A stretch of 64,000 bases of DNA from a virus, in IMG/VR virus record IMGVR_UViG_3300014806_000004; one strand, written 5' to 3'. Under the pieces are notes generated by a model. It ran no database searches, had not been told where the DNA came from, and was given only the letters and a program-made list of their open reading frames with translations. Shown here piece after piece: positions 3,173 through 53,800 of the stretch (position 1 is its first letter; each line of letters opens with the position of its first letter). Position numbers and translations under genes: made by a program.

Positions 3173-3196
3173 TGGGGAACTCACTTGAGTTCCCCA
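3173..3196. terminator. Bidirectional rho-independent terminator between convergent genes
   Basis: The hairpin ggggaactcacttgagttcccc is flanked by an A-run and a T-run. Confidence 0.6.
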
Positions 3197-3507
3197 TCCT
3201 TCTTTAAGCGATTAAAAATAGAATTAGTCATATTTATTATTTCCTAGCCATATGTAGCAATTAAATCAGCTAGTAATTCTTCTTGTTCGATAGACAATTC
3301 TATTCCATAACTAAACATTGCAGCGTGCGTTAACTCATGACATAAAACTTTTTTCATCATTAATGGAGATAATTCTCCATTAATATAAATACCTTTAGTT
3401 TCATTATCACAAGCTCCTATCGTTAACTATCCATCGCTTCTAATTAACATAGGATGAATTGGAGAAGTTAAAAATAATTTCCATCCTTCTCCATTAATAT
3501 TAAACAT
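3181..3507 (-). CDS. Small HExxH-motif protein (putative zinc metallopeptidase-like)
   Basis: The 108-aa ORF overlaps the upstream gene end and contains VLCHELTHAAM. Two in-frame TAGs. It is the last gene of the minus-strand late operon. Confidence 0.35.
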
Positions 3508-4114
3508 GGTTTAAAGAAGATATTTTTGTAGCAAGAGCAGAAATTTTCTTTTCTAATAATTGTCTTTCTTCTGGGCTTGCGTCATCAATCATTTCAACTA
3601 AATCTTCGCTTAATTCTTTCATGTATTTATCTAATTCTTTCATCTTTATTTCTTTATCTTTATGAAGCTCTTTTGATTCCATATACATCCGACGCATCAT
3701 AGGACTACGACCTTCGCGAGAATCTCTTAAATCCATTGGAAATTCTTTCTCGTTATAATATATTGGTCTATCTCCATAGTTTCTGCGGCTATCCTACATA
3801 TCTCCTCTATCTGATTCAGTATATCTCCCTTGAGAATCTCTTGAACGAGGATAGTACATTCTACCCCATTCATTTCTGTCCATATCTCTATCGGGTAAAT
3901 AATATGGAGGAGTGATTGGAATGTAATACTTTCTATGTTCTTCATCTTTCTCTTCCATTGCTTTTACAATAGAACAGTAGTACATTGCCTGCTCTAAATC
4001 TTTTATCATATCAATAGCTTCGCCTAATTCATGAGTGTCTACATTATGAATATCACTTAGCTATGATTGAACACACCCAATAAGAGTTTCTTTCATATGT
4101 TTAAGTCTTTCCAT
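3500..4114 (-). CDS. Hypothetical protein with a charged, Arg/Tyr/Pro-rich middle
   Basis: RBS AAGGGTGG precedes ATG 4114. The ORF fragments 3794..4009 and 3500..3736 are in the same frame and joined by TAG. Confidence 0.4.
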
Positions 4115-4116
4115 AA

Positions 4117-4539
4117 TTAAGCCACCCTTTCAATAATTAAATTTGCATTTTGGACGTCAATAGTCTGAGTAGAAACATTTTTTACTGCAATTTCAAAGCA
4201 ACATCCTCTTGGCACATCAATAAATATAGAACTTGCTACATTATTATAATCTCCTACCGCCGCCGGAGTAGAAATCATAGTAGTAGAAGCTACCCCTTCT
4301 CCATTGATAGCAATAGCTAAAGAAATTGGGCCTGCTGTTCCACCTGCGGCGATTGCAATATTACCGCTAAAATGAGCTTTATATCTAGCTCTGCATTGAG
4401 TAGATGTATTACCTTTTAGTGTTACTAGTCCACTTCCAACGCGATGTAGTAGGCTGTTGGAACAGCCTACTACCGCATCGGTAAAAAGGACATTTTGATT
4501 AGCTTGTACTGTTTGTACGGCATTCGCAATAATTTCCAT
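4117..4539 (-). CDS. Protein with a BclA C-terminal / C1q-like domain (fibre or receptor-binding module?)
   Basis: The 140-aa TAG-free ORF has a Gly/Ala-rich beta-sandwich-like sequence (IAIAAGGTAGPISLAIAINGEG...FIDVPRGCCFEIAVKN) resembling the BclA_C/C1q fold. Confidence 0.35.
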   Translation of the reverse strand: MEIIANAVQTVQANQNVLFTDAVVGCSNSLLHRVGSGLVTLKGNTSTQCRARYKAHFSGNIAIAAGGTAGPISLAIAINGEGVASTTMISTPAAVGDYNNVASSIFIDVPRGCCFEIAVKNVSTQTIDVQNANLIIERVA

Positions 4540-4567
4540 TGAACCAAATCTCTCCTTTTAATTTAAA

Positions 4568-5473
4568 TCAGCATCCGCAACTATTCATGCTATAGCAACA
4601 GTTGGGGTTTGGTACTACGTAAGCGGGAATTGGATTATCACGTCCTAATCTACGGATAAGCTCCGCAGTTTGAGCTTCTTGGTTAGCTGTAATAAAGTTA
4701 TTTTGAGCCTGTTGAGAAGCAGCGAGACGAAGAGCTTGATTCTCGTTTTGCAAATCAGAGATTTTCTCCTGGCAGAGATAATCAAGAATTGCACGAGTTC
4801 CAGCATTTTGGCTATCAATAATATCACGAGTATTATTGGCCATAGAAGTCTGAAGCGCATTAGTATTAGTCGCTAGATTGTAGTTAACGTCGGCAAAACC
4901 TCTCTCAATCTGATGACCAGTCTCGCAGCAGCAATCTGCAATTTGGCGAGAAATAGCATTTTGATTTGTGAGATTATCAAAACTTGCTTGCTGAATTGCA
5001 GATTTTGTATCACAGCAACAGTTAGAAAGCTGTGTAGCTAAAGCATTTTGACCCTGCATTAAAGCTACATTAGTACTATTGAAACCTTGCTGTGTCTGAT
5101 ATCCAAGATTGCATACTGCGTTGTCTACTCCATGGAAACCATTTGTTAAAGCATTATTTAAAGTATATGTGCTATCGCAGATTCCCTACTGGATAGAATT
5201 AATTCCAGACTGTAGATTTTGAAAAGCAAAACCTTCATTAATGTCCGCGCGGGTTGCCCAACCTTGACCAGAAGGAGAACCCAAACCATTACTGTTGGTT
5301 CCATATCCACCAAAACCGCCAAATCCATTTCCCCATCCAGAGAAGCAGAATAAGAATAGAATTATAATCCACCAAGCTCCTCCATCGTTCCAAATTCCGC
5401 CATTGTTACGATCATTGCCACCTGTAGCAGCAGCAATATCAGCTAAAGAGTATCCATTGTTAGAATTGAACAT
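4568..5473 (-). CDS. Hypothetical membrane protein with a Gly-rich N-terminus and CCC/CCxxC motifs
   Basis: Two ORF fragments are joined by TAG. It has a TM helix (WWIIILFLFCFSGW) and repeated CCC motifs. RBS AAAGGAGGAA. Confidence 0.35.
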
Positions 5474-5498
5474 TTAAGTTCCTCCTTTAAGAAAATTA

Positions 5499-6170
5499 TT
5501 AAAGGCCGAGCATTTTCTTAAAGTCAGCAAACTCCTTGTCATAATTTAATCCTCTTTGGGATAAAAGATTTCTAGCTATTTGTTCAATCTCTTCGGTTTT
5601 ATTCTATTTGGCAAGATCTAACAAATTAGCTCCAAACGGATTATTCCCCATCTAACTTTCTAATATATTTAGAGTTAGCTATTGAGGATTCTATCCATTC
5701 CTAATCATTTGAATTAACTACATTGGATTCATTTCATCGGCTCCTTAAAAATCTAATTTTGGCTTTGATTCCTGCTATTGCGCTGTAGGCTATTTATTTG
5801 CCTATGGCGCAATTTTTTCTTTTAATTGAGCAAGTACGGTTTCAAATTCTTCTCTAGTAACAAACTAAGAAGGATTGACAACTGTTTCAATCGGAATATT
5901 TTTTAATTCATAAACATTAAGTGTTGAAGTTCCATCTAAATTTATCTATTTTGTATATATTTTTTTATTAGCTAAATCAGGAAAGAAAAATACAGAACCA
6001 TCAAAGTCAATGCTAGTCGCCTTTACTTCTTCTATTGAAGAAACTGGGCGACCTTTAATTCCAATCTAGGGCTATTCCACATAAGGCATTCTTTGTTGCG
6101 GAGCATAAGGGATTGCCGCATACTAAGGCTGCTATTGTTGTGGTATATAGTATGGATAATTAACTGCCAT
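5499..6170 (-). CDS. Hypothetical protein with a Gln/Pro-rich N-terminus (about 14 TAG codons)
   Basis: RBS AAAGGAGG precedes ATG 6170. The N-terminus reads YIPQQ-TAG-QP-TAG-YAAIPYAPQQ, so TAG codons are embedded in a poly-Gln context. Confidence 0.35.
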
Positions 6171-6306
6171 AGTTTTACCTCCTTTAAAATATTCCCTTGG
6201 CCTTTCATTATTATATAAAATCTTGGCAAAGATAATTTTACTATTTTGCCAAAATTTTTGCCAATTTTAGTATAAAAATATAATGGGGCATAGTAACCCC
6301 ATTATA

Positions 6307-6696
6307 TCATGATGCTCTATTTTCATTAACCGCGGCTTCAATGAGATTAGTTAGGTAAGTATTTAAGTCGCCAGTTGTCTCAATAATATATTGTTTTGCA
6401 TCAGATGATAAGATCTCTAATACAGATTCCATAGTCTTATCAAATGCAATTTTTTGAGCCTCAGCATCAAAAGCACCTTGTTCTTTTAAGCTATTAACAT
6501 AAGTCTGATTTGTAGCTATTACACATTTAGTAATAGTATCAAATATCATAGTGGTGTATTTCTAAGCTGTTTCATTCTCTGTCTTAGAATTTAACTCATC
6601 TCGTTTAGCAGAGAGGAAATCTACGAGATATTTTGTTAAAATACCAAGCAGAGGAAGAATACAAAGCTAGAATATTTGAATAACAATTTCAGGCAT
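6307..6696 (-). CDS. Holin, LL-H family (Phage_holin_6_1-like)
   Basis: An N-terminal TM helix (ILPLLGILTKYLVDFL) is followed by a soluble domain ending LTNLIEAAVNE, which is the typical LL-H holin layout. RBS AAGGAGGAAT. Two in-frame TAGs. Confidence 0.5.
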
Positions 6697-6751
6697 ATTA
6701 ATTCCTCCTTTATACTATATATAAAACAATAGGAAGATAATTTAACTTTAT

Positions 6752-7467
<716 letters not shown>

Positions 7468-7483
7468 TTATTATATAATATAT

Positions 7484-7888
7484 TTATACTCTGTTAATAA
7501 CAACATCTGCCGCAGGCATAATAAAATATAAAGTATCTTCTGATCCAGCTCTAGTCATTTTGTTATTTTTGTCATCTGGATCAATATTTATTCCTAAATC
7601 ACTCTCCGCCGGTATAATAGAGCCATTAACAGTTTTAAATGTATAATTAGGCAACCTACCTACGCCGCCAGAAATTACAAACTCTCCTGGTTTAGCGGTT
7701 GACTAAAAATTTAAGTCGGTATTATCTGTAATTTTATATTCTTTTTGAGAAAAAACTTCACTTACTTTTTCTGCCATTTGCCGAAAAGTTGTTCCATCTG
7801 GAATATCAATTTCTTTATTTATAAGATTTGTCTTTAAAATATTTTTTGTTTCACTTAAATAATCTAATTTATCCGCGATAGTGCCCAT
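7484..7888 (-). CDS. Hypothetical tail-fibre-associated protein
   Basis: The ORF 7703..7888 is extended through a TAG. ATG 7888 overlaps the upstream stop (TAATG). Confidence 0.35.
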
Positions 7889-8070
7889 TAAATCACTTCC
7901 CCATTTATGCTATCTAATACAGCGCCAATGTCACCAATAGAAGCTAAAATTTTATTAAACTCTTGTTCCGTTCCAGAATATCCACCATCTTTAGCTGCGT
8001 CATAAGCGGATTTTCCATTTAATCCAGGCTATCCTATTCCAGCAACCTTTTTTCCATTTACTTTAATCAT
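7888..8070 (-). CDS. Small protein with the GKSAYD..GY.GTEQEF motif found at phage tail-fibre N-termini
   Basis: The 60-aa sequence is MIKVNGKKVAGIG-TAG-PGLNGKSAYDAAKDGGYSGTEQEFNKIL... Confidence 0.35.
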
Positions 8071-8175
8071 TTTATTTCAACTCCAATTCATTATATATTA
8101 CATAAATAAATACATAATCTCCATATAAGAAAGACTAATTATCTCGTCCAACCCTAAATGTTACCTAATTTTCAT

Positions 8176-8772
8176 TTATAGAAATATTGTCAATAATAAA
8201 TGACAGATCGGGAGCGTTAATAGCTGCTTTAGAAATGACCCCCACTAATTCTTAAATTTTGCTAAAATGCTACCATGTATCATTTGAACCCCATCTGAGG
8301 TTTCAGGATTAGGCTATGTTACTAATACAATTACAGCAGGTTCTTTTTCTACTGCAAAAGAAACAGTTCCATATGATGAAATTCCTCCTCCAGCCCTGAC
8401 TGAAGAATTAAATGCCTTTATTTTTAACCAACTCCCTGTTTCAATTTGGCTTATATTTTCTGCAATAGTTGAAAAACTATCGGTTGCCGCAGTTTCTACT
8501 CCCTTGTCAGTGACTGCGGTCGCTATTAGGGCTTTGCCCTCACTGACATCGGTAAAAAGCTCATCAATAGCAGATTGAACATTAGTGGCTTTCATGCTTG
8601 AAGTTTCATTATTATATTCTATTGATGATGCAGTAAGATTTTCATTATCTTCTTCATCAAATTCAATAGTATAAGGCCCTGATCCTAATGTTTCTCCCAT
8701 TTCCGCGCTACCGCCTCCTGGCACGGTAATAGCATTTTGGTTTTTAACCTATCCAGTTAAAATACATTCCAT
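8176..8772 (-). CDS. Tail-fibre-like protein (ATNVQSAIDEL motif)
   Basis: RBS GAAAGGAG. The motif MKATNVQSAIDELFTDV is a common N-terminal signature of phage tail-fibre and tailspike proteins. Three in-frame TAGs. Confidence 0.45.
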
Positions 8773-8892
8773 AGATATTTTCTCCTTTCATCTAAAACCT
8801 TTAAAAAAGTACACTTTACTGAACTTGGTCAACTATATATAATTTATCTACTCTTTCTTTCATATATATTTGAAAAGAGTAAGATACTCACT

Positions 8893-8924
8893 TTTGGGAA
8901 AAGGGTTTCTTACCCTTTTCCCAA
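8893..8924. terminator. Bidirectional rho-independent terminator
   Basis: The hairpin gggaaaagggtttcttacccttttccc has T-tracts on both sides. Confidence 0.55.
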
Positions 8925-9097
8925 TTTTTTGTTATCTAGACAGAAGAAGTATTTTTCCTGTTAAAAAGTGTACTTTTTCTCGGAAATTGTTAATGACTTT
9001 CTAAAAGACTGGAGCGAAGATCGCTTCCATCCTCGACCTTCTATCTAGTAATTTAGATTTGTTTATAGCAATAGCTAGATAGAAGGAGGTAAACAAT

Positions 9098-10855
9098 TTG
9101 CCTAAATGTATTTTAGCTGAGTAGGGTGAAAAAGGTGGAGGCTCTCTTTTTCTTGTAAAAATTGAAGTAACCACTCCCCCTAATAAAACAAGCTATCTTG
9201 CTGGTGACACATTTAATCCTGCTGGAATGGTAGTTACCGCATCTTACGGCATGGATGGTGTTATTGTAACAACAGCAGAAGTAACTGGATATCAAGTTAC
9301 TCCAAATCCTTTAACAGATGGGGTTACTGAAGTAACTATTACTTATTCAGAACTCGGTGAAACTTATCAAACTACCTAGAAGGTAACTGTTATTCATAAA
9401 CTTCTTAGTATTCAGGTTACTACTAACCCAACTAAGATGACCTATGAATATGGTGACACCCTTCAAACAACAGGAATGGTAGTTACAGCGAGTTACTCTG
9501 ATAGTAAAAGCGCGGCTGTTACAGGTTATACGTGCTCACCAACATCCTTAACTACAGTTGGCAGCTAGCAAATTACTGTTTCTTATACAGAGAATGAAGT
9601 AACTCAATCTGCGAAATTTACGGTAACTGTTGAGCGTAAATCTGTCGCTAAACCAACCTGGAAAAGTAATCTTACCTATACAGGTAATAGTCAATCAGTA
9701 AGTGGAACTTCTTATTGGAATAATTTCAATACCACTTATATGACGATTGGCGGAACTACTTCCGCTACTAATGCAGGAACTTATACAGCTACATTTACTC
9801 TAAAGAGCAATTATAGATGGGCTGATAAGACAACCGATAACCTTGATGTAAACTGGATTATTAATAAAGTCGCGGGTAGTTTAACTGTAAATCCAACTTC
9901 TGTTGCTCTTGATGGAGATAATTATAGTACTGGCGTTAAAGTTACTATTACTCGTGCGGGAGATGGAGCTATTAGCTATACTCCAACTAGCGTTACCGGT
10001 CTTACCCTCTCTTTAAGTGGTAATATTCTTACTATTAAAGGTGATGGCAGTACGGCTATTTCTTCTACTACGATTACTATTAAAGTCGCGGCCGGAACTA
10101 ACCATACTGCTCCAGGTAACAAGACTGTTACAGTAACAGCAAGCTATTGGGAGTGGGGTTCTGAAACTGCTACTGGTGATGCTAAGTGGTGGGCTGGATT
10201 AAAGACCTGGGCAGCTAAGGCCTCTTCCAGCGAAAGAAAGAAATGCGTAGGTAAAAAGAAACTCGTAAGTCTTTCTAGTGCGGTACTTGGCGCTAACGCC
10301 GCTACAATGATTTGTATTGGCGCTGATTAGGACGGAACTGGAACATTAACTTTCCAGACTGCGGGAACTTTACCTAATACTACAACATTTGGTAGTAACG
10401 CGTTATGGAATGGTTCAACCGCTCAATCCTTGTGCAATGACTTTGGTAATAGATGTAGCGCAACCGCTTCTATTAAATCTGTTACTAAGAAGACAAGCTC
10501 TGCTAGTAATGGTAATTAGAATAATACTGCGGATGTTCAAACAACTGCAAAATGTTGGCTACCTTCTGAATGTGAGATGGGATTTACTAGCTCTAACGGC
10601 TATGCTAGTTCTTATTAGGAGTGGACTGTTGGAGGAAGTTAGACAGCCTATAGTTACTATACAAGCAACTCTACTAGAGTTAAATACCAGATGAACGCCA
10701 ATGGTTCGTTGACGAATTCAACGATGCGGTATTGGGAACGGTCCCGTTACTACAACTACTCGACCTACGTTTGCCTTGTCGGCAACGATGGATCTGCGAA
10801 CCACTACTACTACTACAACAGCTACGGGCTGGCGCCGGCTTTCGTCATTGGATAA
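9098..10855 (+). CDS. DGR variable (target) protein: Ig-like (BIG-type) repeats plus a C-terminal lectin-like variable domain
   Basis: TTG start 7 nt after AGGAGGT. It has repeated Ig-like modules (TYEYGDTLQTTGMVVTASYSDS...VTGYT...VSYTE). About 7 in-frame TAGs. The last 35 codons form the variable repeat (VR) and end at TAA 10853. Confidence 0.75.
10739..10842 (+). repeat. DGR variable repeat (VR), in-frame at the 3' end of the target gene
   Basis: It is 104 bp long. It matches the TR at every position except 15, and at all 15 the TR base is A (VR has T, C or G). The GC-rich 3' end GGGCTGGCGCCGG is IMH-like. Confidence 0.85.
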
Positions 10856-10936
10856 TACAGCAAAATAACAATTCGGGACAGTTAAGATTAAATTATCCAA
10901 TAAAAAAATTATATATTCAAGTGAGGGAAATTTTAA

Positions 10937-11275
10937 ATGTCTGTAAAAGTAAAGGATAGACACCTATCAAAACAAGACTGTCTTTATAAAGCCCGTGAAT
11001 TGGTTGGCTACATTTTAGTCTTAACTCGTCCCAGAGAATTTGATAAGGATGGAAAACAAATCTGCAAACCTGGACTGCTTGGAGAGGGTCAACCTCTTCA
11101 AGCGTTCGGGTACGATATAATTAAATGCGGAAAGGGTATACACGCTTGCTGCTATGAGGCGTGTAAGATAAACTTAAAAGATAAAGAAACCCTTACAAAG
11201 AGAAATGAATATCACAATAAAGCGATTGAATATTGTGATAGTATATTTCGACAAATCGACCTATGTATTTATTAG
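10937..11275 (+). CDS. Accessory variability determinant (Avd)-like small protein
   Basis: The 112-aa basic ORF lies between the VR and TR, which is the canonical Avd position. There is no direct sequence match, so the call rests on context. Confidence 0.45.
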   Translation: MSVKVKDRHLSKQDCLYKARELVGYILVLTRPREFDKDGKQICKPGLLGEGQPLQAFGYDIIKCGKGIHACCYEACKINLKDKETLTKRNEYHNKAIEYCDSIFRQIDLCIY

Positions 11276-11461
11276 TATGCTCAAAACAGCAAAAAGAAAA
11301 GAAGATCTTTTGAACATCTAGCTAGATTGACTAAGAAAGTAAAAGAATCAATCCAAGATAGAAAAAATAGAGATAAACTTATAGTCGAGCATAGATATTC
11401 GGCTCCTAAAACTCATAGGAGAGGTCGATAATATTTTTCTGCGGTTAAGTTCTGTATCTTT

Positions 11462-11565
11462 CGGTCCCGTAACTACAACAACTCGAACAACGTTTGCAAT
11501 GTCAACAACGATGGATCTGCGAACAACAACAACTACAACAACAGCAACGGGCTGGCGCCGGATTA
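11462..11565 (+). repeat. DGR template repeat (TR)
   Basis: Non-coding and rich in AAC codons (cgtAACtacAACAACtcgAACAAC...). It is the adenine-containing partner of the VR and lies directly upstream of the RT gene. Confidence 0.85.
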
Positions 11566-11870
11566 GATGGAGCTATCATGTTGCGAGTTAAGCTGCGGAG
11601 CAGCGCAAACGAGCAACGCCTAAATAGTACCCCGGAGTATATTATTATCCATCTAATTAAGGTTTACTCTGGATTGCACCCACTATGTGGGGAAGAGATT
11701 GAGAGACCGTTAAAGAGCTTTGCTCTACAACTATCGAATAATATACTATAGGTAGATCTGCCTTTTCATCTAAGGAGAACTTAACCATTTCACTGAAAAA
11801 GTGGATAAAGTAAGACTGTAGACGTGGAGCTCGAGTAGCTACCACTATAGCTACATGATAAGGAGAAAGT

Positions 11871-13087
11871 ATGTCTGAAATAAACCAAGATACTGCTTTC
11901 GAGCGTTTTTGTAGTTTTGACGCTATGTATGATGCGTCTTATAAGGTATGTCGAAACATTCGATGGAAAGATAGTACAATTAATTTTGAAGAGAATAGGA
12001 TAGAAACAATTTTAAAAACAGAAGCTGATCTGCGAGCGTGTGAATACGAATAGCTTGTGTTTAGTTGTTTTTCGATAATCGAACGAGGCAAACCAAGAGA
12101 TATAAGAGCGTGTCATATCAACGACAGACTGGTACAAAATGCGTTATGTGAACAAGTTTTATTACCAGAATTAACTCCTAGATTTATCTACGATAATTGT
12201 GCGACTTTAAGAGGAAAAGGAATAGACTTTGCTTTAAAAAGAGTAAAGAAACACCTTCAACAAGCTCATAGGGAATATGGATTAGGAAAAGATTTTTATG
12301 GATTAAGAATTGATATTCAAAAATATTTTGATTCTATTGACCATAAATCTTTAAAGAAAGCAGCTAAACGTTTGATAAAAGATAAAAGAATTTATCAACT
12401 ATGCTGTTATTTAATAGATACATTTTCTTTTAAGCTAACAAAAGATTCCTCTCCCATACCAGGAAAAGATTATTATATTAGTAAACGGCACAAATACACG
12501 AGAATTAGTACCACTAATTTTAAGCCTGGCCGCAAATACTATGAATATGATAATAAAAGTCTTGGATTAGGAAGTCAAACATCACAATTATTCGCATTGC
12601 TAGCATTGAACGAAATTGACCACTTCATCAAAGAAGAGTTACATATTAAGTATTATGGTCGTTATATGGATGATTTATATTTATTCCACAATGACAGTCA
12701 ATACTTAGCCGAATGTGAAAAGAGAATAGAAGTTCGCTTAAATAAGCAAGGATTAAAGATGAATAAGAAAAAGACTACTATTACTAGAATCTCTCCTATT
12801 CACGCGGACGGCAAACGTCACGCTCCATTAAAATACTTAAAGTGGAACTTTTATCTCACAGACACTAATCATATAATACAAATTCCTTTTAAAAAGAAAG
12901 TGGCTCATTAGCGCAGAAAGTTAAAGAAAATGCAAGCGCTATGGCTAGAGGGTAAAATTTCAACAGATGAAATTTAGAAATCCTATCAAGGTTGGAGGGC
13001 ACATATTTCTAAAGGAACTTGTTTTTATATAATTCAAGATATGGACAATTATTTTCGTTCATTATTTAAAGGAGTTGAAATAAAGTA
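11871..13087 (+). CDS. DGR reverse transcriptase
   Basis: RBS AAGGAGAAAG. The N-terminus (SYKVCRNIRWKDSTINFEENRIETIL...ERGKPRDIRACHINDRLVQNAL) is typical of DGR RTs. It has LGLGSQTSQLFALLALNEID (DGR-type motif 4 with SQ) and YGRYMDDLYLF (YxDD). Three in-frame TAGs. TAA stop overlaps the next ATG. Confidence 0.85.
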
Positions 13088-13750
13088 ATGTATATTCTAT
13101 TAAATAGAGAGAATGTAGTAGTTGATATTCTTTCAGAAGCACGTTACATTAAACTGCAATCCTCAAATGGTATTGTCGTTGCCTGCGAGGAAGAAGAGGG
13201 AACTGGGGTTATCGGCTCAAATGGAGATACACATTATACTCTAATTAAAGCCGATGTATTAAATCAATCTAATGCTGTAAAAGTATTAGAGATAGAAACA
13301 ATTCCATCAGATGTTACTCCTAATTATTCAATATATAATCAAGAAGATGGAACATTCACTTCTGATTTAGATTAGGCAAAGTATGACAAACAAGAGGAAA
13401 ACAAGAAACTATTCGCAGAGTATCTTGCTACCCACCCACTAACTTGGGTTGATGGAAAAGAATATGGAATTACGTAGGAGGACCAATCTGAGATTAGCTT
13501 AAATCTCAATCAATATCAAGTCGCTCTCGCGGCTGAAGTAGAAAATCCTACGCTTGAGTGGCACGCTCGACACGAAGAATGTGTGCCATGGAATTTAGAG
13601 CAATTATCCGCTCTAAGTTTAGCTATTTCAAATGCGGTATATCCTAAATATCATTTAATGCAAGAATATAAAACTTAGATATTCGAAGCTGATTCAATAG
13701 ATAAATTAAAAGCTATTGAATTAAACTATGAAGATACCGACAGTGAGTAA
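13088..13750 (+). CDS. XkdW/DUF4376-like protein (family usually encoded beside tail-fibre genes)
   Basis: The sequence LATHPLTWVDGKEYGIT-TAG-EDQSEISLNLNQYQVAL...LEWHARHEECVPWNLEQL resembles PBSX XkdW-type proteins. Three in-frame TAGs. Confidence 0.4.
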
Positions 13751-14186: not shown

Positions 14187-14189
14187 AAA

Positions 14190-41085: not shown

Positions 41086-41100
41086 TTCAATTCACTCTCC

Positions 41101-42075: not shown

Positions 42076-42079
42076 TAAT

Positions 42080-42923: not shown

Positions 42924-42942
42924 GGCTATAACCTCCCTTATA

Positions 42943-43476: not shown

Positions 43477-43540
43477 AATTTTTATCTCCTTTTTCTCAAT
43501 AAATAAAAGGGGATAGGGATATTTCCCTATCCCCTGTCAA

Positions 43541-44593
43541 TTAACCATTATTTGGATTTGGGTTAGTATTATCAAGCTCGCCTTGAAGTTCAGTATCAAC
43601 ATAAGAAAAGATGTTATTCGCCATCATTACACCGACACCAACCTTACGGTAAACCTGAATATCACGAGACCAGTCGTCATTATCATCGCGTTCGCGCACG
43701 TGGGTAGTACCTTCAAAAGCAACTTTTACAGGACGGCTCTCAGCTCCACCAGGAATAATCCAAGCATAACCTGGATCAATCATCTTTTTGGAGTTAGTCT
43801 CATCCTCAAGAGTTTGAGGTAGAATTACCACTCTAGTTCCCTTGTAATTTGCAAGATAACCAGTTCCCCAATACTGATCTCTCATATTGTCAGAAATCCA
43901 AGCATCATTGTCTGGAATCATTTTTACTGCAAACTCACGAGTGCAATAAATAGTTGGTTGACCATAAGCAGTAGCAGTATTTACAAGATAATCCATAGTT
44001 GGTTCGTCAAAACCAGCAACAGCACAACGGTTTGCTGCGGGAAGCTGATTGATAGAACCCATAAGAGCTTGAGCAATCTCTCTATAAATAAGCTCTTGCA
44101 TACCCTCTGTTACAATTTGAGTAAGTTCTGCAAAGTTTACTCTTCCATCAAGGAACTCCTCAAATCCGATACGAGCAGCTCCACCAATGGCGCTTGTTCC
44201 AACTTCGAAGCTCTCAGAACCAAGCTTAAAGGTCTCATACACACCAGCAAGCCCCACACGAGTAATGAATTGCTTAGCGCGAGTAAGTCCAGTTCTACGA
44301 GTAAATACAGGCTTGTCGCCTTGTGCGAAAGTTCTAATCTCAGCAAAATTGCCATAAGAATTGAGTAAACGATTAGGAACAACTTCATCCATAGTCTGCT
44401 CAATTAAAGAGAATAGAGTATTTTTATTTTCTCTATAAAGTTCATCTGTGCCAACAAATTCATTTAGCTCATTACGCAAAGTAGTATTTAAAGCGTCATA
44501 GCTAAAAGACTCTCCTTGATAGCTATAGGTACCAGAAGGATTTGCATTAGCGACAGTTTTCATTAAACTAAGTAAATTAGCTTTATCTAACAT
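43541..44593 (-). CDS. Major capsid protein candidate
   Basis: Intact 350-aa TAG-free ORF with RBS GGAGTGAAGAAG. It lies directly downstream of the scaffold-like gene. Its composition and size fit an HK97-fold capsid protein. No family-level match was made by eye. Confidence 0.5.
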   Translation of the reverse strand: MLDKANLLSLMKTVANANPSGTYSYQGESFSYDALNTTLRNELNEFVGTDELYRENKNTLFSLIEQTMDEVVPNRLLNSYGNFAEIRTFAQGDKPVFTRRTGLTRAKQFITRVGLAGVYETFKLGSESFEVGTSAIGGAARIGFEEFLDGRVNFAELTQIVTEGMQELIYREIAQALMGSINQLPAANRCAVAGFDEPTMDYLVNTATAYGQPTIYCTREFAVKMIPDNDAWISDNMRDQYWGTGYLANYKGTRVVILPQTLEDETNSKKMIDPGYAWIIPGGAESRPVKVAFEGTTHVRERDDNDDWSRDIQVYRKVGVGVMMANNIFSYVDTELQGELDNTNPNPNNG

Positions 44594-44612
44594 TCTTCTT
44601 CACTCCTTCCAA

Positions 44613-45302
44613 TTAACCTACACGCTGTACTTTTACACCAGGTTGAAGATCTGGCATAGTATACACTTTTACTACTGCAAAGATAGGATCTAAATCTCCA
44701 CCTTTAGCAGAAGTTTCAGTATCTTTAGTTAAATATCCATCAGTATCAATCTTTAGACGATCGCCTACTGCAAGCTCTCCGGCATTAGCTTTAATGGTAT
44801 TAGTAGTCCAAATATCACCAATACTAATCTTAATTACGCGAGGTACCATTTTAGTTCCTTCTGGCATCAATGCAGGATAAGTAAATGTCTCCATATTTTT
44901 CTTATATGCTACATCACTACCTTCGCGTACAGCTTCTCCGGTATAATCACTTATTGTAGCAAGTGTAGAAACTGTTTGTCCAATTGGACTATATACACGA
45001 GCATTATAATTATCCTTAATCATAGCAAAATCAGCATCAGTTTCGCGATCTCTATAAATCTTTACTTCATTAAATACCATCATCCAGGCGCCAGAAGTAG
45101 CTTCCGTACTAAAATCGCATACGCCTTTTGCATAATCATACTTTACAAATTGACCGTTCTCAAGAATCTCAATAGCGCTAGCTGCGGGAAGCTGAGCATA
45201 TACTTGACCATTTCTTGGAGCGGAAAGATGGTTTGGCTCCACTTGACCATATCCATACTGGACAAAAGTGGCATTACCTAATCTTTTAGAACTCTTAGCC
45301 AT
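44613..45302 (-). CDS. Capsid-associated protein (second capsid or decoration protein?)
   Basis: Intact 229-aa TAG-free ORF with RBS AAGGAGGAT. It lies between the scaffold and capsid-protein candidates. Confidence 0.4.
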   Translation of the reverse strand: MAKSSKRLGNATFVQYGYGQVEPNHLSAPRNGQVYAQLPAASAIEILENGQFVKYDYAKGVCDFSTEATSGAWMMVFNEVKIYRDRETDADFAMIKDNYNARVYSPIGQTVSTLATISDYTGEAVREGSDVAYKKNMETFTYPALMPEGTKMVPRVIKISIGDIWTTNTIKANAGELAVGDRLKIDTDGYLTKDTETSAKGGDLDPIFAVVKVYTMPDLQPGVKVQRVG

Positions 45303-45315
45303 TCTTTAATCCTCC

Positions 45316-46545
45316 TTAAATACTGCTTTTAGCAGTTTCACGAATTGCTTTTACCCAATCAGGAACGTTGTCAGTTTCTGGATTATTTAAATTAAAAAGT
45401 CCCTTTGGGGTATTATCTTCTTCTTTATGCTTTTCTTCAAGATTGAAATTTACTTTATTTCTAACACAAAGAATAGATAATTTAGCTTCAATATCATCTA
45501 AAGAATAAGTATCAATATGCTCAGCGACATCTTTCTTATCCTCATCACTTAACATATAGAAACTATCAATCATTTGTTGTTTACTTTGACGTTCAGCATT
45601 AAGTTTAAATTCTCTTAGTGCTGTAACTTCATTATCTAGATTAGTTTTTTCTTGCTCAAGAGCAGAATATTTAGTCTCTAAATCGGTAAACTTTGTAAGT
45701 AACTCTGTATATTCTGTTACTTCTTCAAGATTATACTTCTTACCTTGAGGAGTATCCTTTTTCTTTTCTTTTTCTCCCTCTGGGGCTGGAGCAGGATTTT
45801 CAGAAGTCTTTTTCTTCTTATCCTCTTCGGGATTTGGAGTATTTTTCTCGAAATCAGTAGGTACTTTCTTCTCATTCTCCATAGGTTCTTGAGAGCCTCC
45901 TTTATTTAAAGTTTCTTTTAATTGATCCATCATAGAATACATCATAGTTTTAAGTTTCTAAAACTCTTGATTATTCTCTAAAGAAAATTGAGAACTAAAT
46001 TGAGCTCCCTCGAAACAAGGCTCAACATTTTCTCCGAGAACACATAATTTCTCAATCAATGCCTCATTGTAGATAAAGATTCTTTCATTTGTTTTATCAT
46101 CTTTTGTCCAAAATCCTGATTGATTTTCTTCATTCAATTCCATAGAATGGTTATTGCCATTCTCCAGGATTCTTTTAGATTCTGGATAAACGCTAGTCCA
46201 AATGTATACATCTGTCACAAGATATTCTCTTTCTACGCCTTCATCATTGAACTTCTAAAACCATACATTTGCATTTGTAGGAACAAATCCATATGGTCTT
46301 GTGGTATCAACAATAGCAAACTTACCATCTCGAACAATAATTTCTCTGTTGTGGCCTTCAAAATCATTTATTTCATGATTAAAATATCCAACAATAGGAC
46401 TTCCTGGTAGTTTACGTCCCATTTCCGCGGCCACTTCTTTGGTAATTACAGTATGGTTGCGGTTAGGTTGCTACCCAACATAGCAAACTTTGCAGACACC
46501 TTTACTAACTAGAGGAGAAATCTAAGTGTTCTAAATATATTCCAT
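45316..46545 (-). CDS. Scaffolding protein candidate: N-terminal globular domain plus acidic coiled-coil C-terminus
   Basis: ATG 46545 is in frame with the ORF fragments 45958..46218 and 45316..45945. Six in-frame TAGs. The C-terminal 200 aa are charged and helical (KEKKKDTPQGKKYNLEEVTEYTELLTKFTDLETKYSALEQEK...). Confidence 0.5.
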
Positions 46546-46589
46546 CGTATTTAAAATGGGAACACTAATATGCAAGTTCAATCCCTCCT

Positions 46590-48215
46590 TTATGACGAAC
46601 TTTCTTGATTAGCTATTGTCTTATCTGACTTTTCGCCATCTTCTTTTTTGGGCCTGCCGGCTCCATTAGTATTAGTTGAACTTGTCTACTTATTCTAAGA
46701 ATTAGTTTTAGATGACTAATTATTATTACCCAAATCTTTTCCGCTTCTGGTATTAGAACTCATAGGTGGAATCATAATTTCTGCCAAATTCAATACTTCG
46801 TTCTCAAATGTTAATGTAGCTAATATGCTCGATTGAGAGTGACCTAAAGCAATCTGTGGCAACATCTTAGAATAACCCAGTTGAGCGTGCTCTTTATATA
46901 ATTTAGATAACTCTTTATAATTAAACTAGGTAGTTTCTAACATTTCCGCTCTAAACTCATAATGATTTTTGCGATTAAATTTCTCTACTACTCGATTTAA
47001 TAAATCTGTAAACATAAGAGGAATATCTCTTACGCTAGATTCATCTGTCAAAATAGAATTTGTAACTGCAATATTGCCATCTGCATTAAACAAATTATGA
47101 GTTACACCTGAGTTATTATAAACTGTACGTTCAACTTTTTCTAAATCGTCTGTCGTTGTATTAGAATTATTATCTTTTGTATCAATTTTTTCAATATCTG
47201 CAAAAGTTGTTAATACATCTACACCAATAGCTCGTTTTAACATAGTTACAGCATTATTATGAATATCCCTTGCTTCATCAACATCAAAAATCAAATCTCC
47301 ATTTTTATCAAGAGGCAACTTCTAAATAATAATTTTTAATAATTGTTGCATTGTCTTTTGACGATCTAATTCTTGCGCTTGATCCAAATCAATAATAGAA
47401 GGAATAACCCCAGATAGAAAAGGAAATTCATTATCATTTAGACTAAACTTTACAGAAATACTAGGATCTAGTGGATACCATACAGTAGTATCACCTGGAT
47501 AATCCCCTTTTAATTTTCCCTGTTTATAAAGAATATATGCCTTTTGAATATCCTGTGGAAAAATCTTTAATATCTAGATTTTATATTGCGGATTGGCAAA
47601 ATAAGTGTCAAAAAACTAAAGATTTAATTCTACTATTGGATTAGGGCCCTAGAAATATCTACTTCTGCAATATGAAGCTGGTAATTTCTAAATTGCAAAT
47701 CTATCTCCAAAATCAACAATTACACCATAATAAGCTCCTTCTTTAATAATATCTAATGATATATTTCCAAGCATTCTCTTCACACTAGATTTATCAAGGT
47801 AAAGCAAGACCTTTGAAAAATCTTTTAATAACTTATCTTTATCTTTCTACGCATCTACTGTGTATGGAGTAATATACCAATCAAATCTATATAAGAAGGC
47901 TAAATATTTACATAATCTATAATAAATACCGCTACTTTCATAAAAGTAATTAGAAATCTCTCTTAAAGTCTTGTAATCATGTTTATAAATAGCATTTAAT
48001 ACAAACTTTTTATCTCCATAATTTCTATTTATCTTTTTATATGTACCTAGATTAATAAGCGCATCATCCACAGACCGTAATCCAACTCGCATTTTTGCAT
48101 AATCAACAGTATCATAATTCAAAAAATCTTCTTCCTATTGATAACGAGTAATAATACCTCGATCTAATAGATCAAAACCTTTAGCTCTTATTTCTTCCTA
48201 TCGACGTTTTAACAA
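46590..48215 (-). CDS. Portal protein
   Basis: TTG start after GGAGGTG. 541 aa including the ORF fragments 47847..48122 and 46926..47318. The size, the position after terL and the acidic C-terminus fit a portal. About 16 in-frame TAGs. Confidence 0.75.
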
Positions 48216-48232
48216 AATATCACCTCCAGGTG

Positions 48233-48589
48233 TTAATATCCAGCTTTACTCATTAAATAATCATAAGAGATGATATTTTCCTCCGTATAGGGAACTTCAA
48301 TGAGGGTAATACCTTTTAATGCACAAAATCTACGCTTTTGATTATCATTATATTTCTATTGGTATAATCCTCTATTTCCACCAAATTTACTAACAGCCTA
48401 ATAATGCTATTTACCCTGATACTCAATTAAAAAATCAAGATTTCCATCATCATCAAAAACAGCAAAATCAAAACGAAGTGGCCTGCCACTTGGTGCTTTC
48501 AGCCCAGGAAACTCATACTCTTCTTTAAAGTTCATGCCATTTTGCTCTAATATCTCATGAATTTTAATTTCTCCACGACTAGCCTTCAT
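48233..48589 (-). CDS. Small PD-(D/E)xK endonuclease-like protein (DUF559/Vsr-like); candidate homing endonuclease
   Basis: It reads LRFDFAVFDDDGNLDFLIEYQGK-TAG-HY...DNQKRRFCALKGITLIEVPY. It is inserted between terL and the portal gene. Three in-frame TAGs. Confidence 0.45.
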
Positions 48590-48592
48590 ATC

Positions 48593-50338
48593 TTACACCT
48601 CACTCATAAACATAAAATCTGAAAATCTTCTACTTTTACGCTTGCGTTTACTATCTTCTTCCTATTTAATATAATATAATCCATATTCAAGCGCAGAGAA
48701 TTTATCTTTGGGCACAGACTTATTTGCCTGTTTTAAAATAATATTTACACCCTCATTTTCTTCTCGCAAATTTAGCATTTCTTCTCTTAATATAGAAGTT
48801 AAAGTGAATGGTTTTAAATATTCTGCCCGCTCTTCTGGTTTCATGGCTTGACCTTTCTTGGTACCAAGTAATTTATTTCTAGCAACTTTTTCGTCGATTA
48901 AAAATCTTAACTTTCCAGCCCGCAACTATGTCTAAACATTGCTATGGGCTTCGGTATTAATTGGCGCATTTGCCTTAATTTCATAAATAGCATCATATTC
49001 TGTATTATCTGTTCTAAATCGTTTATATTCTCCATCTTCATCATTAGCTACACCAAAATCAGGAAAAACTTCATTGGTATCTGGCACTATTTGTGGTTTA
49101 ACCATATAATCCATCAATCCAGCACCAAGTCCATTACCGTCAATAACAATAATTTTAGCTTTATAATCATAATATAATCTTTTTAGCTTAATTGCCTAAT
49201 CTTCAAAATGTTCATCATCCATAGTATATATATTAACAAGAGACTTAATCGCTGGTCCTTGAGACTGAGGGGTTACTTTAAATACACATACAACAGATTG
49301 ACATTTCTTTCTTCCTACATCAACAGAAAGAACATAATATGCTTGAGCAGAAGAGCGCCCAGAAGATTCATATTCAGGCTAAAGCAATTTTCTACTTCTA
49401 TCAAAAGCATCACCATTAAAGAAGGCATCTTCTACGGTGCCACTCCATTTAGATTCATACTCTCTATCAAATGATGCTTCATTAAATGTACCATCTTGTT
49501 TTAACTCCTATACAAAGTTGCGGGATTGCAATCCCACTAGCACAGGAATTCTCCATGTTCCGCCCATTACAATACTCTTTTCGGGTTCTAGTATCATGCG
49601 CACTAGCAAAGTAATCAACTTATTATATGGGAATGTGTTTTTCCACCCCGCAGTAGTTACATAAATCTAAGATTTATTAAGTGTTTCTTCTTCATGAACA
49701 GATCCGTCTAAACATCTTCTATCAACGTTCATTAGAGGGATTAAAACTTCATTTAAAATATCTCCATCTACACCAACGCACTCCTCAATTAATCCTCCAT
49801 GTCTACGCTTACCACGAGAAGATTCTCTAGCCGCGACGTTGTCAAAATAAGATCCATTTTTGAAGATATACTTACAATAATCTTTTCCTTCCTAAGTCTT
49901 ACCTCTTCGCCAATCAATCTCTCTCTAAAGTGCGGGAATCGCATTACAAATTTCCTAGACTTTTTCTTTTGCAATACCTGCTGCCTATTCTTTTCCGCCA
50001 GAAGTAATGAATAGCTTACATCCAGGATATAATATACATCTACACATAAGTACCATTACTGATAAGAATGACTTAGAATAAGCACGGGGAAATACCATGT
50101 ATACATACTTATATCTCATGGCCGCCCGCAAGAAAATTCTCTAATAAAAATAGAAATTAATTTCTTTTTTTCTTGTTTCATCTCCACCGGTCTACAAAAA
50201 GTCAATAAACATATCTGGATATTCTCTCCAAAAAGCTATATACTATCTTGCTGCTGGAATTATCGCACGAACTCTTTCTTCGGAAAGGCCAATTTTCTTA
50301 TTATTATTTGAAAGGTTTAATAAATCTTTTAATGCCAT
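48593..50338 (-). CDS. terL: Terminase large subunit
   Basis: 581 aa. It has the ATPase motif (...KSqIYVTTAGWKNTF) and a nuclease domain (IIVIDGNGLGAGLMDY...). It joins the ORF fragments 48932..49117 and 48662..48925. About 13 in-frame TAGs. TAA stop. Confidence 0.85.
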
Positions 50339-50341
50339 ATA

Positions 50342-51511
50342 TTAAACCTCCTTTAATATATTATTTAACATTTCCTCATCTTTATCTCTTTCCGACTCTT
50401 TCATATCTTCATACTCTTGATAATCTTCTTCTGTTAATTCTGAATGCTCGTAATTAAATAAATCTTCATCCTCATCGCTATCTTCAACATCAATATTTGC
50501 CTCGCGTTCTCTGTCTTTAACTATTTCTCTTAACGAAGCTTCGATCATATTACCAAGATTCATTTCCTCTGTAACTAGAGTATGAGTATATTGCTGTAAA
50601 TCCTAAAGAGTTCTATCTACTTTATCTTGGGGCCCTTCCGTATAATATCTAGGAATAAAACCCTCTCTTTCGCAAAGGGCTACTAATTCACCTATTGAAT
50701 CTACAAATTCACCGGATTCGCCTTTGTTCTAAGCAGCCGTAAATTTGCCGCTTTTCATTAAACTATCATAGGCTTTTTGCATCTTCTAAAAGCCATCAAT
50801 ATCTCCAGCATCAATTAACTAATTTGCTTTTAAACTAGCTTTACATACCATAATAAGAGTATCTTTATGACCTGCTCCTTGAATATCATAAGAACTCATC
50901 ATATCATTGTAAAGCTGCTCCATTCTTACTCTTTCTTCCCAAGAATATCCGCGGCCCCATTTAAGACGTAATACTAATTTATCTTCTTCGGTTAGCTAAT
51001 CACCAAAATCATCATCTTCCTCTGGATCTTCATATTCTGGAGTTCCTACAGGGGCCTAAACATCCTCTAATTCTTTTGGTTTTGGAGGAGTTCTATCAAT
51101 AGACAACTGCTCTTGAATTTCATCTTCTGTAAATCCTTGAGCCTTCATATTAAGAACTTTTTTATCAATGGAATCTTTCTCTAGCGTTTCTGTATCTGCC
51201 CAAGTGTATTTATTCCATTGCTTTAATTTCATTTTAGATAAATAGCGTCCAATAATAGTTAATCCAGTAACTTTCTTTGGATCTTTTCCATATTTTCCCA
51301 ATAAACCATTCCATTCTTCTTTAATATATGGAACGTCAATCTCCTATAAAATCCATTTATAAGTTTCTGGATCCCAGTTATCTACGTGCATAGTAAGACA
51401 CTTTTTACAAATATCCATCTTTCCATCTGGAGGATACTTCTCTAAATTTTTTGATGTATAAAACTATGTATCATCCATAGTTTTACCACATTTTTTACAA
51501 TAATGGCTCAT
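50342..51511 (-). CDS. Putative small terminase / DNA-packaging protein with an N-terminal zinc ribbon and acidic C-terminus
   Basis: 389 aa immediately upstream of terL. It has CKKCG...DICKKC and the ORF fragments 51056..51301 and 50342..50563 in one frame. Seven in-frame TAGs. Confidence 0.35.
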
Positions 51512-51517
51512 TTATAA

Positions 51518-52564
51518 TCAACCTCTTTTCTTATTGCGACAGCGCTTACAGATACTATACAAATTATCCTTACTTGTCTTATTCTTTGAAAAGAATTGAT
51601 TATGGGCTGGCTTTAATTGCCCACACTTAGAACATTTTTTCATTGGGTATCCTTTTTGTTTATACTACCAACGTAAAAAATCTTCTAAAGCCTCTTCCGC
51701 AATGAGTTTAGGAATCTTATTTCTCCATAGGCTAGAAATATATTCAACGCTATATGTTTTACCAAACTCATTTTTTAATATTTCCTATATTTCGTTATTC
51801 TACTTTTTATCAATTTTGAGTTCAACAATTCGTAAATAGATTGGAAAGTCTTTGAGAGCTTTATCACATATTTCTTCAAATGATTGAATTAAATACCATG
51901 TATCTCCCTCAAACTAATCATAACTATCCTCTTTTAATTTTGAATAATTGCATAAAATAGCAGAAACAACATTGGCGTCCATTAGCGAAATACCCTTTAC
52001 CACTACCTCCTGTCCATTAAGATAACTCTAATCATCAAGAGGAATATGAGTTCTTACGGATCTCGTTAATTTACATGGTATAATAGGTTTCTAATATGCT
52101 TGCTTAATGATATACTAATCTTTTCGCATCTCTATTAATGCTTTTTTCATCATATATGCCTATTTTGTCCCAGCAGCGCGTTTTAAAGCGCCCTCCCAGA
52201 CATTAATGGTTTCTCTCAACTATTTTAAACATGGTATAGTATCTAAATCTTTCTGTGTAATAGAAATCTTTGGCTAAAATATAACATTTTTATTTTCTGA
52301 CATTAAACCATAAATGCCATCCTCGCCATTTTCCATCTATGACACAAGCCCTTCGAAAGAACATTCTCTTTTATTAACAGTAGCCATTCTATTATCTGTT
52401 AATATATTCTTTTCTTTCTTCTCTTGCTTTTCCATACATAGAACTAAATAATCTGCTAATATTTCTAAATAACTCGGAGTAAGATCCGGATTTTCTTCGA
52501 TTATTTTTTCGACAAGCGCTTTTCGCTCTTCTGGAGACTCAATAGTATAATCTAATTTTATCAT
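51518..52564 (-). CDS. Hypothetical first gene of the late operon (C-terminal zinc ribbon)
   Basis: ATG 52564 after AAAGGAGATGACAG. 348 aa with about 14 TAGs. The C-terminus reads CSKCGQLKPAHNQFF...YSICKRCRNKKRG. TGA stop. Confidence 0.35.
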
Positions 52565-52686
52565 ACTGTCATCTCCTTTTATACTCATATAATAACAAAA
52601 AAATACTAGATTGTCAAATCTTATTTGATTAATTAAAATTATAATGCTATAATATAAATAGAAAATAGTAGGAGGAATATAAAGAA

Positions 52687-53028
52687 ATGTTCTTCGATGA
52701 ACCTTACAATGCACTACCAAAAAACGCATAGTATTATTTTAATATTTTAATTGTATGTATCGCTGTATCTCCATAGTATGCCCAAGAGACATTTCAATAG
52801 AACATTATTAATATGTGGGATATATAGGGAATTACAGACGGGAGACCTTATGCTGTCCATATTTATACAACACATCATATAAATAAAGATTTTTAGTACG
52901 AATTATAGTGCTTACCTCATTAGGTGTTAGAAGTAGACAGCGAATAGGGTATATCTTTTTATGATATGATAGATTATTATACTGATGATCCATGGAGGCT
53001 AGAACCAGAGAATGACGAAATAGATTAA
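52687..53028 (+). CDS. TAG-dense small ORF (113 codons, 9 of them TAG) overlapping the folD start
   Basis: A strong RBS TAGGAGGAA lies 7 nt before ATG 52687. The frame stays open to TAA 53026 only if TAG is sense. Whether it is a real gene is uncertain. Confidence 0.3.
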
Positions 53029-53800
53029 TATAAAAGAGTATTTTAAACAAGAGATAGAGAAATTGCTGGTTGATAGATCTGCAATTCCTTCTCTCATGAT
53101 TATCGACGCGACGGCCTAGGATCCCGCAAATCAAATTTATATTCGTAATAAAATAAAAGACTTTAATGCTCTTGGTTGGAAAGCAGAAGTATTTAGAGCT
53201 AATAGTTCAGTAGAATTAAAGTTATTTTTAGACCATGCGAAAGATTGGGATGCTGTAATAGTCCAAATGCCAATAGCAGACGGGATTGATTTCAATTATA
53301 ATCAAATACCTGTTTCTAAAGATGCAGATGGATTAAATCCAATGAGTAATATTACTCCAGCAACAGTAAGAGGAATTATAGATTATTTGGATAAATGTGG
53401 CTTTAACTACGAAGGTAAATCTGCTGTTGTTTTGGGAAGAAGCGATATTGTAGGAAAGCCAATGGCTAAAGCTCTTCTAGATAGAAATATGACCGTATCA
53501 ATGTGTCACAGTAAAACAGATATAAACACAAAACTCTATTTAACAAGACAAGCGGATTTAATTATCTCTGCGGTAGGAAAATTTAGCTTAACAAGAGAAG
53601 CCTGTCCTAATGCTATTGTTATAGATGTTGGTATTCGTAGAAATGAAGCAGGAATTATTCTTGGAGACTTTGTAGAAATTGATGAAATTGCAAGTAAAAA
53701 TAAGGTATGGTCAACTCCTGTCCCCGGAGGAGTAGGTCTATTAACAAGATTGGGGTTGATGAAAAATTGTTTATAGTTAGCGAAACAGGCACAAAGATAA
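53012..53800 (+). CDS. folD: Bifunctional methylene-THF dehydrogenase/cyclohydrolase
   Basis: It has DATA-TAG-DPANQIYIRNK (compare E. coli VGSNPASQIYVASK), DAVIVQMPIADG, KDADGLNP, GRSDIVGKPMAKALL and TPVPGGVGLLT. Two internal TAGs, plus an apparent TAG stop at 53774 followed 8 codons later by a TAATG overlap with the next gene. Confidence 0.75.

Follow-up and report, generated by a model that had tools for sequence, protein, structure and literature searches.

Reading of TAG, most likely as glutamine, in a heavily recoded phage of the phAss-1/EF1 group

Introduction

Recoding of the stop codon TAG to glutamine (Gln), known as code 15, has been surveyed across many phage clades together with a two-code model of the phage life cycle (10.1101/2021.08.26.457843), and it was confirmed by metaproteomics in crAss-like phages (Peters et al. 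2022, PMC9523058). For phAss-1 a Phassvirus group was proposed, whose members share 80-86% nucleotide identity, within a broader monophyletic group including Enterococcus phage EF1 (Babkin et al. 2023, PMC10607447). NCBI places phAss-1 (OQ749652) under 'Caudoviricetes code 15 clade'. Here we analyzed a 64 kb stretch (GC 0.347) of the IMG/VR virus record IMGVR_UViG_3300014806_000004, hereafter the window, for which an original prediction, made from the letters alone, had proposed that TAG is a sense codon. Very probably the window is part of a large (~120-160 kb) siphovirus-like code-15 phage in which TAG specifies Gln and only TAA and TGA stop translation. By sequence comparison this phage is a member of the broad phAss-1/EF1 group yet not of Phassvirus: its large terminase TerL is 44% identical to that of phAss-1 and homologous over the full length which, with the lack of a nucleotide match to phAss-1, points to a different genus-level lineage. 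Megablast of 18 kb against GenBank phages returned no match. The novelty implied in the original prediction did not hold, since phages with code 15, some of them related to the present one, were already on record (PMC10607447; 10.1101/2021.08.26.457843; PMC9523058).

Results

TAG is a sense codon between 188 and 54,328

Under the standard code the window contains 61 open reading frames (ORFs) of at least 100 amino acids (aa), the longest having 464 aa. When TAG was taken as sense, the longest ORF became 2,913 codons from stop to stop, a run without TAA and TGA whose chance at the window composition is ~10^-67; making TGA or TAA sense instead brought no comparable gain in ORF length. A gene map built with TAA and TGA as sole stops comprises 76 ORFs with 362 in-frame TAGs, the great bulk of which lie left of 54.33 kb. 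The stretch concerned and the principal genes are as follows.

188..54328, both strands: TAG-as-sense stretch, 355 TAGs in 46 of 54 ORFs, coding coverage 94%
27462..36017, minus strand: tape measure protein, 2,851 aa from the first ATG, 98 in-frame TAGs (3.4%)
48593..50338, minus strand: large terminase TerL, 581 aa, 14 in-frame TAGs
46590..48092, minus strand: portal protein, 500 aa, 10 TAGs
52985..53800, plus strand: FolD-like methylene-tetrahydrofolate dehydrogenase/cyclohydrolase, 4 TAGs (Pfam THF_DHG_CYH_C 2.9e-38; PDB FolD 2e-37)
2183..2662, plus strand: RuvC-like resolvase, 159 aa, 9 TAGs (5.7%; Pfam RuvC)
6748..7371, minus strand: small serine recombinase/resolvase, 6 TAGs, non-ATG start near 7371 (Pfam Resolvase)
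11871..13088, plus strand: reverse transcriptase of a diversity-generating retroelement, 3 TAGs (Pfam RVT_1; template repeat/variable repeat pair)

All 355 interruptions left of 54.33 kb are TAG, with neither TAA nor TGA among them and with no frameshift. The original prediction had named TAA and TGA as the sole gene ends, which is true by construction in this map; support beyond the construction comes from the tight tiling of the genes, mostly separated by gaps of 3-65 nucleotides (nt) or slightly overlapping and covering 96.7% of 14,229-52,729, and from the TAG positions, which are uniform along genes without clustering near their ends (Kolmogorov-Smirnov p=0.09). The same tiling indicates that TAG is not used as a terminator left of the right-hand block described below.

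To compare these genes with standard-code homologues, proteins were translated with X at TAG (neutral score) and searched by tblastn against six standard-code phage loci. The alignments run through the TAGs in 12 proteins, TerL, portal and tape measure among them. For TerL, one uninterrupted alignment to standard-code phages spans 93% of the protein, with 50% identity to Enterococcus phages VRE9_4 and H1 and 48% to Geobacillus virus E3 and Alicyclobacillus phage KKP_3916, and TerL also matches SPbeta-like YonF proteins. The portal alignment to VRE9_4 and KKP_3916 crosses all 10 TAGs, and that of the tape measure protein to the corresponding genes of VRE9_4, Geobacillus E3 and KKP_3916 covers many. 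Homologue alignment had been set beforehand as a check on the sense reading, and conservation does not stop at the TAGs. These results confirm TAG as a sense codon, not a stop, in 188-54,328.

In the main, the details of the original prediction stood. TerL, the tape measure gene and others do become uninterrupted, the gain in ORF length is specific to TAG, the TerL, RuvC, resolvase, FolD and reverse transcriptase (RVT_1) assignments were verified, and 11 of 11 listed TAG coordinates fall on an in-frame TAG or within 3 nt of one. The giant tape measure ORF was recovered at 2,851 aa from its first ATG in place of the 2908 aa given. A typical TAG density of 2-3% per gene was also found, over a range of 0-7.1% where an upper end of ~8% had been stated. 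Three claims needed correction: the longest minus-strand standard-code ORF in 14.2-36.2 kb has 250 aa, where none above ~120 aa had been reported; the interval 3181-53800 was too narrow, TAG-bearing genes starting at ~188 with the RuvC gene among those left of 3181; and the recoding does not extend 'across the phage', the rightmost 10 kb being TAG-free, with TAG there neither sense nor stop.

TAG most likely encodes Gln

In the alignments to standard-code phages, Gln is the commonest partner of TAG (22.7% against a background of 5.1%, or 4.45-fold; 109 sites, 233 cells), followed by K and E, while Trp occurs in 2 of the 233 cells and is not enriched. The partner profile of TAG is the same as that of genuine CAA/CAG Gln in those alignments, and at TerL positions 66, 118, 224 and 381 Gln is invariant or nearly so in the six standard-code proteins. 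Alignments of FolD to PDB entries tell nothing about the residue, the FolD TAGs sitting at variable positions.

A finer comparison was obtained from IMG/VR, which holds 279 TerL relatives, through a codon alignment of 76 of these. The 14 TerL TAGs of the window mostly face CAA (402), CAG (170) and TAG (203), the next codon being AAA (59), and four of the 14 columns hold CAA, CAG or TAG exclusively. The TAG count in TerL among the 76 relatives ranges from 0 to 14, with the window at the maximum. The recoding of this gene is graded: at least 10 relatives (~70% identity) have no TAG, most have 1-11, and 14 are found solely in the immediate group of the window (TerL loci L012-L091). All 14 TAGs are kept in five independent contigs whose TerL is 98-99.8% identical, which rules out an assembly or base-calling artefact.

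A tRNA(CUA) is encoded by near-identical relatives

The search for a tRNA(CUA) that the original prediction had recommended yielded nothing in the window but succeeded in all five relatives with TerL identity of 98-99.8%, in which the gene lies ~35 kb past the position of the window's right end. An Rfam gathering scan of the window gave no match. An array of ~30 tRNAs with a transfer-messenger RNA (tmRNA) is located ~13 kb past the right end in relatives, and beyond it come tail-fibre-like genes with TAGs and then a small cluster in the order Ser(UGA)-tRNA(CUA)-Leu(CAA)-Cys(GCA), which all five close relatives and three shorter contigs share. The tRNA(CUA) has 76 nt, an unpaired U1-U72, G73 and an encoded CCA, and its acceptor positions 2-6 are identical to those of the phage's own tRNA-Gln(UUG). 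More distant relatives (TerL ~84%) carry a 91-nt tRNA(CUA) with a 20-nt extra arm. tRNA scans of the 10 kb flanking TerL on each side in 50 relatives, and of 10-20 kb past both window ends, showed no suppressor; in published TAG-recoded genomes a phage suppressor tRNA(CUA) was detected in ~40% (10.1101/2021.08.26.457843).

It is very unlikely that TAG, though sense, specifies another residue (such as Trp, Glu, Lys, Leu or pyrrolysine) or is read as more than one. The tRNA(CUA) is overall slightly closer to the phage tRNA-Trp(CCA) than to tRNA-Gln, but in E. coli Gln is known to be loaded onto amber suppressors that come from tRNA-Trp (work cited in 10.1101/2021.08.26.457843); given this knowledge, a Trp- or a Gln-tRNA origin is compatible with Gln charging, and the near absence of Trp opposite TAG speaks against Trp itself. 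ARAGORN labels the tRNA 'Pyl', a label that follows from the anticodon alone. K and E as the next commonest partners, as well as the long extra arm of the 91-nt form, could also be cited for another residue, whereas the TAG profile equals that of genuine Gln, the four TerL columns admit nothing but CAA, CAG and TAG in 76 sequences, Gln is invariant opposite TAG in six standard-code TerL proteins, and adding TAG to CAA and CAG gives a normal Gln content of 4.6%. As the original prediction supposed, TAG thus most likely encodes Gln, judged by the 4.45-fold enrichment, the TerL columns and the Gln-like acceptor stem of tRNA(CUA) in relatives.

Two other tRNA-like genes of relatives were considered as TAG decoders and rejected. 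One, of 117 nt (relative loci L174 4894-5010; L172 1418-1534, minus strand), contains no CTA; it scores 49.8 bits with the Rfam tRNA model, is missed by ARAGORN and directly follows tRNA-Gln(UUG) and tRNA-Gln(CUG), and the 55-nt insertion in its anticodon arm forms two hairpins, one with the loop UCUUUAAC. The other, an AT-rich tRNA of 74 nt (L165 15661-15734; L169 17348-17421), has a Gln-like acceptor end (U1, G73) and an 8-nt anticodon loop without a CUA anticodon. ARAGORN calls it Leu(CAA) in some relatives, with that 8-nt loop, and Ser(UGA) in another, and neither label suits a short-arm tRNA. The tmRNA inside the ~30-tRNA array of close relatives (L174 2025-2340; L173 9990-10310; L172 3902-4222; L181 3692-4007) reaches 114.6 bits in Rfam and encodes the tag peptide DNDYFENYLAA. 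In a more distant relative, IMGVR_UViG_3300000301_000012, one tRNA gene (L182 20069-20143) has the anticodon UUA and would therefore read TAA.

TAG is abundant in late genes and avoided in the capsid gene

The late module of 12,404 codons uses TAG 277 times, CAA 231 times and CAG 60 times, so that TAG makes up 49% of Gln-type codons, whose total of 4.6% is the normal Gln content noted above. Late structural, packaging and lysis genes contain 2-3.4% TAG and middle genes ~0.1-1%, forming a gradient in which presumed early genes have none, middle genes few and late genes many; we infer this timing from promoters and gene content. The 98 TAGs of the tape measure gene imply that reassignment is nearly complete late in infection. 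Four genes bear on how TAG is distributed within the late module.

43541..44593, minus strand: predicted HK97-fold major capsid protein, 350 aa, no TAG, 13 Gln codons
38401..39792, minus strand: virion structural protein (phrog_2729), 463 aa, no TAG
44613..45302, minus strand: head-module protein, role unassigned, 229 aa, no TAG
6307..6696, minus strand: holin (phrog_13712 2.9e-33), 129 aa, 2 TAGs (1.6%, under the late-gene mean)

The first three are structural genes without TAG in which the CAA/CAG counts predict several. By a binomial test from each gene's CAA/CAG counts, the absence of TAG has P of 1.7e-4 for 43541-44593, 3.3e-4 for 38401-39792 and 4.7e-3 for 44613-45302. Searches of a local Pfam copy gave no match for TerL, portal or capsid protein, and a PDB sequence search none for capsid or tail proteins, so the identity of the capsid had to be obtained from structure prediction: an AlphaFold model (pLDDT 67) matched many phage capsids and encapsulins with Foldseek probability 1.00, by which the 43541-44593 product is an HK97-fold major capsid protein. 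The product of 38401-39792 is probably the major tail protein, judging from gene position. Avoidance of TAG in high-copy proteins would point to a residual cost of TAG decoding, and that seen in the capsid and probable major tail genes suggests that TAG is decoded more slowly or more leakily than CAA/CAG. The two-code model further expects lysogeny (integrase) genes to avoid recoded stops and lysis genes to be the most enriched in them. Neither avoidance of TAG in a lysogeny gene nor enrichment in a lysis gene was found, the recombinase having 6 TAGs and the holin a density of 1.6%.

The right-hand 10 kb is free of TAG

54373..64000, plus strand: code-neutral putative early region, GC 0.41, small genes, no TAG, promoters and hairpin terminators
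55112..55549, plus strand: PTH2-type peptidyl-tRNA hydrolase (Pfam PTH2 1.2e-22)

No plausible in-frame TAG occurs in this block (54.4-64 kb), and its ~25 plausible plus-strand genes all end in a stop other than TAG. Standard-code relatives end ~15% of long ORFs in TAG, against which 0 of ~25 has P~0.015. The right-hand 10 kb has 20 CAG codons. Six of the 11 strong TTGACA-17-TATAAT matches of the window (consensus sigma-70 promoters) are in the block, and in relatives the TAG-free region extends ~13 kb further. Its genes encode a PARG-like macro domain protein, the PTH2 enzyme, an AbrB/MazE-like protein and, going by sequence and without a family match, a putative exonuclease. The two-code model expects a block readable under both codes with host-type promoters, and such a block is present at 54.4-64 kb.

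Between 56100 and 63860, six TTGACA-17-T(A/G)TAAT promoters, several with a TG-extended -10, are found between small plus-strand genes; GC-rich hairpins followed by T runs include one of 32 nt that recurs identically (60969 and 63740), and TTGTGCAA/TTGCACAA palindromes are among the repeated regulatory units. The gene of the microbial PARG-like macro domain protein (285 aa, within 54373-55549) overlaps the PTH2 gene by 118 nt; its tail appears non-coding, and either its end or the PTH2 start is uncertain. Any connection of PTH2 to recoding is only a guess.

A host that itself reads TAG as Gln, with no code switch in infection, would account for the recoding too, and it would fit that no RF1-directed factor was found, albeit without a systematic search. 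This is highly improbable: a promoter-rich block free of TAG both as sense and as stop is what a standard-code cell would lead one to expect, the phage lineage has its own tRNA(CUA), close relatives with no TerL TAG terminate genes with this codon, and the recoded phages and prophages of the literature live in standard-code hosts (10.1101/2021.08.26.457843).

Other genes of the window and its relatives

A complete diversity-generating retroelement occupies 9227-13088. Its target gene (9227-10855) encodes Big_3 plus a C-terminal DUF6273, and all 14 differences between the variable repeat (10739-10841) and the template repeat (11462-11564) are at template adenines. Auxiliary and replication genes at 188-730 and 1620-2186 encode a formate/nitrite-transporter-like protein and a dUTPase, the latter identified by Pfam. 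Left of the window in relatives (L119 1-10000) are genes for a putative RecD-like helicase, a putative 1,293-aa PHP-domain DNA polymerase and a putative anaerobic ribonucleotide reductase NrdD/NrdG, with 0-2 TAGs in each of these replication-side genes, whose functions were assigned by reading of translations.

Discussion

The sense status and Gln identity of TAG, its distribution among genes and the tRNA(CUA) of near-identical relatives are shown by these data and can be combined into a mechanism; its timing, the Gln charging of the tRNA and what becomes of the host release factor RF1 are what we infer. After infection, host RNA polymerase and translation would express the small TAG-free genes, which read the same under either code. 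A phage tRNA set outside the window would then supply tRNA(CUA), with an acceptor end resembling that of the phage tRNA-Gln. Once made and charged by the host Gln-charging pathway, this tRNA would allow TAG to be read through, and thereby the expression of the middle genes and subsequently of the TAG-rich late structural, packaging and lysis genes.

Several points weigh against this proposal. ARAGORN found no tRNA in the window, so that the suppressor is seen in relatives and not in this genome; among phage tRNAs it is closest overall to tRNA-Trp(CCA), so that its sequence is an ambiguous guide to charging. Genes for a release factor, an aminoacyl-tRNA synthetase or an RF1 inhibitor did not come to light, though no systematic search was made. 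The 98-TAG tape measure gene needs read-through of ~97-99% or more per codon, values computed to give 5-37% full-length product. Finally, the division between early and late codes is merely approximate, the serine recombinase gene having 6 TAGs and the replication genes 1-2 each.

Could the TAGs be real stops, in a decaying prophage with nonsense mutations or in genes expressed as fragments? The genes are indeed fragmented under the standard code, and the GenBank annotation of phAss-1 shows similar fragments; decay or fragmentation is nevertheless extremely improbable, given that 355 of 355 interruptions are TAG with no TAA, TGA or frameshift, that conservation runs on past TAGs placed uniformly along genes, and that TAG positions are common to independent assemblies and swapped with CAA/CAG in relatives. 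Systematic C-to-T miscalls (a modified base or deamination), which would turn CAG into TAG by a single transition and match the late-gene counts of CAG (60) and TAG (277), have a negligible chance of being the cause, since CAA should then also yield TAA, of which the 12,404 late-gene codons hold none in frame, since identical TAGs recur in several independent contigs and samples, and since, on the same molecule, 20 CAG codons are retained in the right-hand 10 kb, where no plausible in-frame TAG occurs.

Within the proposed reading of TAG as Gln, we raise one tentative and rather doubtful extension: beyond a timing switch, TAG may act as a dosage dial, being the main Gln codon (49%) in genes for low-copy virion proteins and enzymes, with as many as 98 in one gene, and excluded from proteins needed in hundreds of copies, the capsid and probable major tail proteins. 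If true, some further factor would have to neutralise host RF1 almost completely, and PTH2, the tmRNA of relatives and the odd tRNA-like genes with enlarged anticodon arms might contribute.

The principle of TAG recoding in phages is already established. In practical terms, standard-code annotation would shatter the genes of this genome, a problem shared by the GenBank record of phAss-1, and the phage family is very common in public metagenomes (>7,400 capsid homologues). Within the family the number of TAGs in a single gene is graded from 0 to 14, and one heavily recoded member uses TAG as its main Gln codon, which makes the family a good natural system for studying stepwise stop-codon capture and competition with RF1.

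Comparison with known systems

The clades described by Borges et al. (Lak, crAss-like, Garnet, Agate, Topaz and others) are, as here, of low GC with TAG-to-Gln recoding, and they have a suppressor tRNA, as relatives of the present phage do (10.1101/2021.08.26.457843). They likewise have code-compatible early genes with recoded structural and lysis genes, and standard-code close relatives, the recoding varying over short evolutionary distances (10.1101/2021.08.26.457843). The integrases of Garnet and Topaz phages avoid recoded stops, whereas the recombinase here has 6 TAGs (10.1101/2021.08.26.457843). Relative to their model, the holin here is not especially TAG-rich and the strongest bias is avoidance in the capsid and probable major tail genes; also, no RF2 was noticed in the parts examined here, release factors not having been searched for. 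The crAss-like code-15 phages share the same reassignment, which is peptide-confirmed there; they belong to the unrelated order Crassvirales and are podovirus-like with Bacteroidota hosts (PMC9523058).

The standard-code relatives VRE9_4, H1, EF1, Geobacillus E3 and KKP_3916, whose TerL is 48-50% identical, share with the window the order of packaging, head, tail and tape measure genes, but they have no in-frame TAG and use it to end ~15% of long ORFs. phAss-1 and Phassvirus are human-gut, siphovirus-like phages of ~135 kb with a tape measure protein of ~3,000 aa, like the present phage; in phAss-1, too, the TerL, portal, tape measure and tail-fibre genes have TAG recoded to Gln, and large tRNA sets include tRNA-Sup(CTA), as in relatives of the present phage, with no dedicated synthetase (PMC10607447). 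They differ in that TAG was reported in 28% of phAss-1 ORFs compared with 46 of 54 here, and in that Phassvirus genomes have two or three tRNA(CUA) and relatives of the present phage one (PMC10607447). TAG-to-Gln recoding and the broad phage group being already described, the phage of the window is a heavily recoded additional lineage rather than a new phenomenon.

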